Origin: Lama glama
Taxonomy: Eukaryota
Direction: 5' to 3'
Length of the DNA: 64,000 nt
Assembly: GCA_028534125.1 (NCBI GenBank)
Contig: CM052816.1
Coordinates: 58,530,001-58,594,000 of the forward strand
Part shown: positions 41,382 to 44,300 of the stretch, one piece after another
How the letters are laid out: every line of letters starts with the position of its first letter
Numbering within the stretch: position 1 is the stretch's first letter
Position numbers and translations under genes: made by a program
The notes under the pieces: model-generated
Databases searched by the model: none
Told to the model about the DNA's origin: nothing
Seen by the model: the letters and a program-made list of their open reading frames with translations, nothing else

Positions 41382-44300
41382 CTGTAGTGAAAAGAAGAAA
41401 AGTAAATTTAAAAAGTAGTTTCCAAAAGTTAAGTACAGCATAGCTAGATGATATTCAAGTTGCTTTGCTCTTTTATATCTCTATCACTGTTTCCCCTACT
41501 TTATTAGTTCCAATGTACTAAATATTCTCAAATTTAAGGCAATTAATTTTTTTCCAAAAAAGTATTCCTTAGAAATGAGGGAATGACTTTGTTTTTGAGT
41601 CCTTAAATTCCCTCGAATTATAGAACACCCTCAATTACTTCATTTTAAGTAACTCTTTGGGGAGGACACTTGAGCTTGAAATTAGTGCTTAGTTTTGAAT
41701 GCTTACAGAGGTCAAGGAAGGATTCAATTAAAAAGAGAAGCACAAAAATTTAACACAAATTCCTAGGGAATAACCTCACAATTGCAAAAGTTATATTCCC
41801 CTTTTAAATAATTTAACCAGTAAAGAATAAGGCAAAAGACATATATAAGATAATAAGAATAATCAAATCAAATGAAAGAAAAATAATATCTTTATTTATA
41901 TCTACATAGATATCAAATAATATCTGTATCTGTAACTATAGTACAGTATAATATCTATCAGTGTTACATATATAAATACTTGTGCTTTGGGGTAAAATTT
42001 CCAGGGCAACATCACATACAGTTTCAAAAATCATTAAATCTCAAACAGCACAGAAGAAAAGACGATGTGTTCTTAAAAATTGTCACGATTCAAAAAGTGG
42101 TTGTCATGAGAATGCAGCTACTGATGTCAAAGAGATATGGAAAACTTAATAAAATTGTTTTATGAAATGTGATAGAATAAACAAGCAATCCTTCCAACTT
42201 AAGATTTTATATAGTTTGTATAGTTTTAGATACGGACATGTAACTAAATTAATAAAAAATTAAAACTAGATGGCGATCTATCTTATTTGCAACTTTACAT
42301 AAGTTTATTTATTCAAATTTGCCACCTTCAAAATTTTAAAAAATATTTTCTCAGTGGCACAATGGGGGAATAAACTTTTATCTGTGGATGCCTTAAATGG
42401 TAACTTCAAAATGAGTTACAACACAACCTAAAGTACAATATGGAGAAAAAAACTTAGTATTTCCAAGCTAAATGCAGTTTAGCTTGCAAACTGAAGACAG
42501 TTTAAAGTACTAAAATATCTTTATAACAAAATTAGAATGCAGAATTATAAAACAACTGTCTGTAATAGCTCCCATTTTCTCTCTCCCTTCTGCTATATGA
42601 GACTTGTCTTCAACAATCTGTTGAAAACTATAATGCTATTTCTCATACAACATTTAATATTTAGAAAGTACATGAGGGGGTATAGCTCAGGGGTAGAGCA
42701 TTTGACTGCAGAAAGTACATGAACTTACATGTTGGTCTTTCAATTCCCCCTGACAGCTGTAACAAAATCTGAAAAAGAAAGTTTAGAAATCATTTTGTTA
42801 ATAATTCACTCATTAAAGTAGCTCAGAAAAAAACCCAATAAGAAGAATCCTTTAATTAATAAGTACAGTTAACCCTTGAACAAGAGGTTAGGTGTGGCGA
42901 TTCCTGCAGTCGAAAATTTGAGTATAACTTTACAGTTGGCCCTCTGGTCCTCCAACCCTCCGACTCTCCATATCTGTGGTTCCACATCTGAGGATTCAAC
43001 CAACTGTGGATCACGTAGTACTGTAGTTATGTGTTTACTGAAAAAATCTGCACATAAGTGGACCCTCACCATTCAAACCCATGTTGTTCAAGGGTCAACT
43101 GTAATTATCTTTACACATAACTTAGGAGAAAGACTTAAGAATATCAGTAATTTAAGAAAATTCCACAGTATATCCCAAAGTCATCTGACAGCTTAAAATA
43201 CTACTTAAATTTTATTTTCATCAAGGTTAAATACAAGTATGAGTATGCTTTCTTAAGTGGGATTCTGCAAGGGGATTAAGCCCTACAGAAAATGATTTAA
43301 ATGACTATTTTTCAGCTTTCCCAAAGACAGAAGACAGCTGGTACAAATCTAGATGGATAGGAGAGAAGTTAATTTATCACAAGAATGGATGCCTAAGGGC
43401 TTAATTTTCAAGTGTTTTAAAGAGTTGAAAGTTCTCAAAACTTATTACAAAAAAGCAGTTCCCTTCCTACCTACACCACTTCATTTCCAGAGGAAACACT
43501 AAAATTTTTACTGTCCGACGGCTCCCTATGCTCATAGTGCTACCTTTTTCATAGGCACTGGCTGTGAACTTCCTACTATGCAAGATGAGATTTTAACCCT
43601 CTTTCAAACCTCCTGAACCAACAGCACGTATAACAAATGTCATTCTCAATTCTTTCTATGTAGTTGAATCATTTTGGATAGAACAATATTAAATGTTTAG
43701 CTTATTATGACTATATAGACATATTTGGCTGAGTCATGCCATACAACTTTTCCTCTCTGTAAAACATTTTTTTCCTGGAGTTGATGACTGTATTGTTATT
43801 CACGAGCTTAGTTTTCTATGTAATTACCGTTAACTTAGCCCCAACCGTTCTCTGAAAAATCCAAATATCCTCTTGTTATGTTCAGCAACAGCAGGAATTC
43901 TATAGTTTCCATGCTCTGGTGACATCTCTCTTAGAGCATTCTGACCTTCTCCAAGCTGGACTGACTTTCTCTGTATCTGACACGCAAGTGTCATTCTGGG
44001 ATGTCCCCTTACCATCATCCTACAGACTTTTTTAGCCATTTCTGAATTAGGTAAATGTTCCTATTCTCCTTCATTCATTTCTTCTCAGTTCTTTTGAACC
44101 ATCTCTTCCACAGCTTCCCCAGGAAGTCTCTTTTTGAGATCTCACAAGTCTTGAAAGTATCTTTATTCTAACTACATTTAATTGATAGCTTGGCTGGGTA
44201 TATAATTTAGGTTGGTGATAATTTTTACTCCAAATTTTGAAGGAAATTGCTTCTTGTCACCAGTCAGTGTTGTTAATGAGAAGCCAAACACTTTTAATTC

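Follow-up and report, generated by a model that had tools for sequence, protein, structure and literature searches.

A tailless tRNA-Cys(GCA) retropseudogene close to a splice donor of GTF2H2 in the llama genome

The last intron of GTF2H2 in Lama glama carries a copy of the 5' half of tRNA-Cys(GCA). It is almost certainly a tailless tRNA retropseudogene of the L1 type, a class assignment that the earlier note on this DNA had proposed and that is supported by the anatomy of the insert and by 49 sister copies bearing a target-site duplication (TSD). The insert is a real and well-formed new case of an already described class, and it is probably neutral. The best explanation overall, and a fairly likely one, is that it arose by L1-type target-primed reverse transcription and is now a neutral passenger. 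Two parts of this explanation can be graded separately: the template RNA was, with good probability, continuous past C35, and the insert, which we infer to be neutral, very probably does not affect GTF2H2 to any appreciable extent. Its anatomy, the source family and the shared breakpoint are direct observations, as are, at the level of the family, the tRNA leaders and the read-out of the template. The family favours internal priming on RNA that spans the anticodon loop, in many cases a pre-tRNA with its leader, and the target and the TSD point to L1 ORF2p as the probable enzyme. Positions refer to the window, the whole 64-kb stretch of DNA that was analysed (Table 1).

Anatomy of the insert

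The insert begins at G1 and covers 34-37 of the 72 nucleotides of the tRNA; in standard numbering its unique part extends from G1 to C35. The 34-mer has 18 exact matches in the same genome (0 for a reversed control), and ARAGORN identifies 11 of them as intact tRNA-Cys(GCA) genes. In these genes AGA comes next, so that the match amounts to 37/37, which upholds the earlier claim of a 34-37-nt half of tRNA-Cys(GCA) ending in the anticodon loop. The other anatomical features claimed, namely a perfect 13-bp TSD, the lack of poly(A), a TT/AGAAA target (42661-42667) and AGA shared between tRNA and target, can all be read directly. The two TSD copies agree over exactly 13 bp, and the next base on either side already differs. 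This duplication is the sole exact direct repeat of at least 13 bp at 25-100 bp spacing in the window, and the chance of a 13-bp repeat at one fixed spacing is about 4e-8. No A-tail follows the insert, which runs directly into TSD copy 2. The latter would be the original target sequence, present in the putative empty allele too.

Table 1. Features of the insertion site and of the adjoining part of GTF2H2
Feature	Position in window	Strand	Remarks
TSD copy 1 (5' copy)	42663..42675	+	13 bp, preceded by TT, read directly
Unique insert, 34 nt, tRNA-Cys(GCA) linear bases 1-34	42676..42709	+	identity to 11 intact genes
AG at intron +22/+23 after short pyrimidine run, created at TSD-insert junction	42706..42707	-	
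AGA common to tRNA (A36, G37, A38) and target	42710..42712	+	putative priming site
TSD copy 2 (3' copy), intron +7 to +19	42710..42722	+	read directly
Splice donor GTAAGT of last GTF2H2 intron	42723..42728	-	untouched by insertion
40-nt penultimate coding exon of GTF2H2 (TFIIH p44)	42729..42768	-	
Exonic UCAGGGG (G-run 42750-42746), predicted cis partner of insert	42747..42753	-	

The class of tailless retropseudogenes is that of Schmitz et al. 2004, cited here via Noll et al. 2015 (PMC5322556) and Kojima 2010 (PMC2912911). In its accessible text the 2015 paper describes the class, allows processed and unprocessed tRNA templates, and favours internal priming. As far as the class is characterised in the available parts of these papers, the GTF2H2 insert agrees with it: it is 5' complete, truncated by at least 10 nt at a 3' end that lies in a loop, at least 30 nt long and free of oligo(A), with a TSD of 13 bp (8-35 nt in the class), complementarity to the target of 3 nt (2-18 nt in the class) and a processed or unprocessed tRNA as template. 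The target TT/AGAAAGT fits the L1 pattern, position +2 being occupied by the template's G, and is not an exact match to the consensus TT/AAAA or TT/WAAAAWW. Neither the B-box nor the tail of a tRNA-derived SINE is present. The insert has an A-box only and is oriented antisense to GTF2H2; because it lacks a B-box, independent Pol III transcription is rejected.

ARAGORN found no tRNA gene in the window, and Rfam gave only a sub-threshold tRNA match for the insert (22.6 bits against a cut-off of 29), since the element is only half a tRNA. The Rfam alignment reaches 42751, but a longer tRNA was rejected, as the extension is a chance pairing with the plus-strand C-run of the exon; this alignment prompted the test of a cis helix described below.

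A search of the same genome with the flanks revealed no second copy of the locus, and in metagenome contigs nothing matched the flank-plus-TSD pattern. Sampled words of the region were present at fractions of 0.94-0.95 in 14 DNA runs from three organisms and at 0.53 in one other organism, values in which a missing insert (about 3.5% of words) is indistinguishable from two or three SNPs. That no run holds all sampled words (best 0.95) would suit an assembly artefact, or a short fragment of cDNA or of a tRNA gene patched into a staggered double-strand break. Such origins are extremely unlikely, however, given the exact start at G1, the loop-specific end, the L1-like target and a TSD length shared with 49 sisters, together with precursor leaders that show RNA templates.

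The host gene and the splice donor

The host gene on the minus strand is assigned to GTF2H2 with an E-value of 4e-19 for a neighbouring exon. The 40-nt exon encodes 13 residues that agree with p44 in a PDB alignment, and its loss by skipping would shift the frame of the last exon. The last intron occupies 42728-41382, and the intronic part of its donor is a full consensus.

The earlier note placed a TSD copy at intron +7, immediately beside GTAAGT. The position is correct, but the sequence new to the intron starts only at +20; judged against the putative empty allele, intron bases +1 to +19 are the same with or without the insert. This location, 13 bp from the sixth base of the donor, is the only feature in which the insert differs from known tailless retropseudogenes, and it is uncommon but within chance. 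Assuming 200,000 introns, about 0.13 of the 69 Cys halves described below are expected at most 20 nt from a donor, and for 500 tRNA halves the expectation is about one.

Two other elements were seen near the gene. A remnant resembling a DNA transposon, presumably Tigger-like, lies at 42863-43100, about 95 nt upstream of the acceptor of the 40-nt exon. Downstream of GTF2H2 on the same strand, a short exon frame resembling a BIR domain (about 21770-21820, minus strand) is one that we take to be NAIP-like.

A family of tRNA-Cys halves in the genome

The genome was searched with a 28-nt pattern allowing up to 2 mismatches, which gave 105 matches, 100 of them surveyed. Four look-alikes of locus L120 on small contigs were left out, L050 and L126 failed a 3-mismatch filter, and duplicates were merged. 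The resulting 98 distinct loci comprise 24 intact tRNA-Cys genes, 5 SINEs with a tRNA-Ala head and 69 halves, the GTF2H2 copy included. In 45 halves the tRNA match stops at linear 35 and in 18 at linear 37; in the remainder it ends at 34, 36 or 38 (5 halves) or at 40 (one). Thus 68/69 ends fall at linear 34-38, a breakpoint peak conditional on the pattern, which spans linear 4-31 and overlooks any half truncated upstream of roughly base 31. In 50/69 halves there is a TSD of 8-20 bp that is anchored at linear 35, and 19/69 are without a TSD at this threshold. The genome thus contains dozens of copies like the GTF2H2 insert, which is not unusual. The sister halves bear differing leaders and D-loop variants, so they arose independently from tRNA genes.

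All 24 intact tRNA-Cys genes lie in three clusters (C7:73.27-73.43 Mb, C24:20.03-20.22 Mb and C4:0.34 Mb). No dispersed full-length Cys retrocopy is found among the 98 loci. At L005 (about 1504-1620), the head of an Ala-headed SINE follows within about 25 bases of the TSD of a Cys half, an adjacent double insertion. Cys halves look especially numerous, at 69 compared with at most about 20 candidates each for Gln-CTG and Phe-GAA; this is a raw comparison without normalisation, in which there are 24 Cys genes, the patterns differ, and the Gln and Phe figures (35 and 22 total matches) include intact genes and small-contig repeats.

The survey also bears on the age of the insertion. Both the body and the TSD are perfect in 5/50 TSD-bearing copies, among them the GTF2H2 copy, and, if rates between 2.5e-9 and 1e-9 per site per year are assumed, its 60 clean site-lineages bound the insertion age to <20-50 Myr. 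The description of the insertion as young in the earlier note is thus weakly supported: it agrees with the perfect body and TSD, and the age is bounded no more closely than this.

Read-out of the template at the target

The target base opposite G37 (position +2) is G in 18/50 TSD-bearing copies, including the GTF2H2 copy. At each position flanking +2, G occurs in 2/50 copies (p 9e-5), and at +4 in 4/50 (p 1e-3); the value at +2 is not significantly above that at +5 (10/50, p 0.12). Gln-CTG and Phe-GAA halves were used as controls, with 10/35 and 10/22 matches, respectively, fetched away from the large tRNA cluster. G stands opposite G36 in 6/6 loop-ended Gln-CTG halves and at position 37 in 3/5 Phe-GAA halves with a TSD spanning 37, so that in these small control sets the location of the G changes along with the template; the base before the TSD follows the template in 0/4 Phe cases. 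Tailed SINEs (17 copies, 7 TSDs) yielded 5 usable sites, 1 with C and 0 with G at +2, which are too few for a solid endonuclease-only baseline of G at +2. The reading of G37 into the target needs RNA beyond C35.

The base directly before the first target A is C in 39/45 copies, against a background of 0.26-0.32, and this excess shows that the template selects the target. We dropped it as proof against a tiRNA template, because a half ending at C35 predicts the same C as does pairing across C35-A36 in an intact loop. The GTF2H2 copy has T at this position.

Leader remnants in the sister copies

Between the TSD and G1, 21/50 copies have a spacer of 3-8 nt. Compared with the leaders of the 24 intact genes, with a match score that could extend into the end of the TSD, 16/21 spacers match over at least 3 bases, 9/21 over at least 4 and 7/21 over at least 5; the respective null rates are 0.25, 0.07 and 0.019 (p 1e-6, 5e-6 and 8e-8). 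The match to gene leaders implies that such copies came from unprocessed precursors. Halves of mature tRNA have no leader. Where the spacer is missing, the TSD ends in A in 13/17 cases (p 2e-4).

The GTF2H2 copy belongs to those without a spacer before G1. Its TSD copy 1 ends in GA, which is also the leader end of L022, the sole intact gene of the same D-loop type with a leader ending in GA. From the sequence, this terminal GA could be a 2-nt overlap with the pre-tRNA leader.

The leader remnants in L053, L074, L095, L096, L112, L072 and L124 point to candidate parent genes (L017 for L053, L016 for L074 and L014 for L096). Leader-like spacers also occur in the Gln and Phe halves (L157-L176), and independent copies share the same spacer in two instances (L159 with L160, and L169 with L170).

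Cut or continuous template

On the preferred reading, internal priming on a continuous RNA, an endonuclease would cut the minus strand at TTTCT/AA, at a distance of 19-20 bases from the start of the intron. The TCT at the 3' end so released could then anneal to A36-G37-A38 of a tRNA-Cys whose anticodon loop was open and uncut; this RNA would most likely have been a precursor in the nucleus. From it, tRNA bases 34 to 1 would be reverse-transcribed, and a second nick 13 bp away would lead to the target-site duplication.

Alternatively, the template might have been cleaved beforehand: either a 5' half (tiRNA-Cys) that angiogenin or a related RNase had cut at C35, or a tRNA carrying a nick. Such a template would have been taken up at the target with hardly any pairing, if any, and the AGA common to tRNA and target would be due to chance. 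Several observations suit this alternative. The last unique base of the insert is C35, which places the break precisely at C35|A36, a step of the pyrimidine|A type in the anticodon loop, and the C before the first target A in the sisters is what 1-nt terminal pairing with C35 would give. The preferred step of angiogenin is C|A, and in tRNA-Sec the enzyme cleaves between C35 and A36 (PMC11840711), evidence that concerns tRNA-Sec, the accessible text of that paper containing no word that begins with 'Cys'. In its available part, a 2025 preprint (10.1101/2025.02.02.635956) proposes tRNA halves as templates of tRNA/L1 chimeras. We nevertheless consider a pre-cut or nicked template unlikely. The leaders of the sister copies point to precursors and not to mature-tRNA halves, and at the family level the target appears to carry information from beyond C35, with G37 read out in 18/50 copies, that in GTF2H2 included. 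The GTF2H2 copy also lacks the C that terminal pairing predicts. In the accessible text of Noll et al. 2015 (PMC5322556), truncated templates are unsupported, for 5S rRNA and U2 and not for tRNA. The earlier note had left the choice between a tiRNA and internal priming undecided and had spoken in its title of a fossil of a 5' tRNA half. Internal priming is supported, and the sister leaders and the read-out beyond the C|A step do not favour the tiRNA.

Possible effects on splicing

The cost of opening the donor, computed by RNA folding, is 4.3 kcal/mol for the filled allele, 4.4-6.0 for the putative empty allele and 4.4 +/- 0.5 for 60 shuffled inserts. The overall folding energy with the insert (-51.8) is within the range of the shuffles (-50.4 +/- 3.3). 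Occlusion of the donor by the insert was rejected, as the opening cost is not raised and a small hairpin at the exon end exists in both alleles. The suggestion that the insert could act on splicing through the nearby donor therefore finds no backing in these models, in which the first 19 intron bases are unchanged as well.

Folding does predict a helix between the insert and the exon, which the earlier note does not mention. Insert bases 42693-42687 (CCCCUGA in the pre-mRNA) pair with exonic UCAGGGG in a predicted 7-bp helix, with a pair probability of 0.81-0.83 at three window sizes. The pairing of the four G's of the exonic run is 1.0 in the filled allele compared with 0.35-0.65 in the putative empty allele. 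The G-run lies 18-22 nt upstream of the donor, and we take it to be a possible hnRNP H/F site. In addition, the new AG downstream of the donor is, as read from the sequence, a possible weak cryptic acceptor. The insert might accordingly alter splicing in cis, with CCCCUGA hiding the G-run, or with its C-runs or the new AG at +23 binding factors. Such an effect is improbable. The predicted helix speaks for it, as does the shortness of an exon whose loss shifts the reading frame, but the opening cost of a donor with a full intronic consensus is not raised, equilibrium folding ignores proteins and co-transcriptional order, and selection would presumably act against any harmful change in a core subunit of TFIIH. 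The cis helix needs no tRNA in trans. We regard it as the better hypothesis for an effect on splicing, though a weak one all the same.

In the trans version, fragments of tRNA-Cys would bind the pre-mRNA and cause a splicing change or Ago2 cleavage, so that GTF2H2 would sense tRNA fragmentation; this is very unlikely. The perfect 37-bp duplex is computed at -78 kcal/mol, and the opening of tRNA bases 1-37 would cost about 15, but any perfect antisense copy yields such a duplex energy and there are dozens of sister copies. A short-lived intron is also unlikely to pair well with tRNA, which is folded, modified and bound by proteins, or with its halves, most of which are in the cytoplasm. Silencing of nascent RNA via introns by tRNA-derived small RNAs has been described (PMC8860591), although the accessible text of that paper concerns Dicer-made small RNAs on Ago2 and not 34-nt halves.

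A combination of the two, in which the retrocopy would regulate a core gene of transcription and repair like a switch, hiding the G-run in cis and responding to a tRNA-Cys fragment in trans, has a similarly slight chance of being right. If it were true, the fragment would displace the helix or guide Ago2, and stress-induced tRNA cleavage would tune exon inclusion or the p44 level in this lineage. Tailless retrocopies would then quite generally supply introns with perfect target sites for tRNA fragments. Either a cis helix or a trans effect, if real, would make the retrocopy a link between tRNA cleavage and TFIIH. The reading that we retain is that of a neutral passenger.

Comparison with known elements and significance

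The chimeras of tRNA halves and LINE-1 resemble the GTF2H2 copy in their tRNA piece of about bases 1-37, as given in the available part of the preprint (10.1101/2025.02.02.635956), but the GTF2H2 copy has no L1 segment between its TSD copies. The authors of the preprint favour pre-cut halves there, whereas the leaders and the G37 read-out found here favour longer, continuous precursor templates. The family survey thus has a modest value for the question of internal priming versus pre-cut halves, and the leader remnants could serve as a record of the tRNA-Cys genes transcribed in the germline.

As it stands, the GTF2H2 insert itself is of little importance. It may be used as a presence/absence marker in phylogenetic or population work. 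Reads of 5' tRNA-Cys halves would map to it perfectly in antisense and could be mistaken for an intronic small RNA. The 5'-tiRNA-Cys is an angiogenin product with a terminal oligo-G and a role in translation. The element has the same sequence span and the same end at a C|A step, but unlike this RNA it consists of DNA, has only an A-box, lies antisense to its host gene and shows no sign of expression.

The tRNA-Ala-headed SINE of this genome, which we take to be Vic-1-like, is likewise flanked by TSDs and shares about the first 24 bases of its tRNA head with the insert. The SINE is a full-length element with a B-box and an A-rich tail, whereas the insert has the Cys sequence and breaks off at the anticodon. 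A full SINE with a tRNA-Ala head and an AT-rich tail is present in the window at 34872-35005 on the plus strand.
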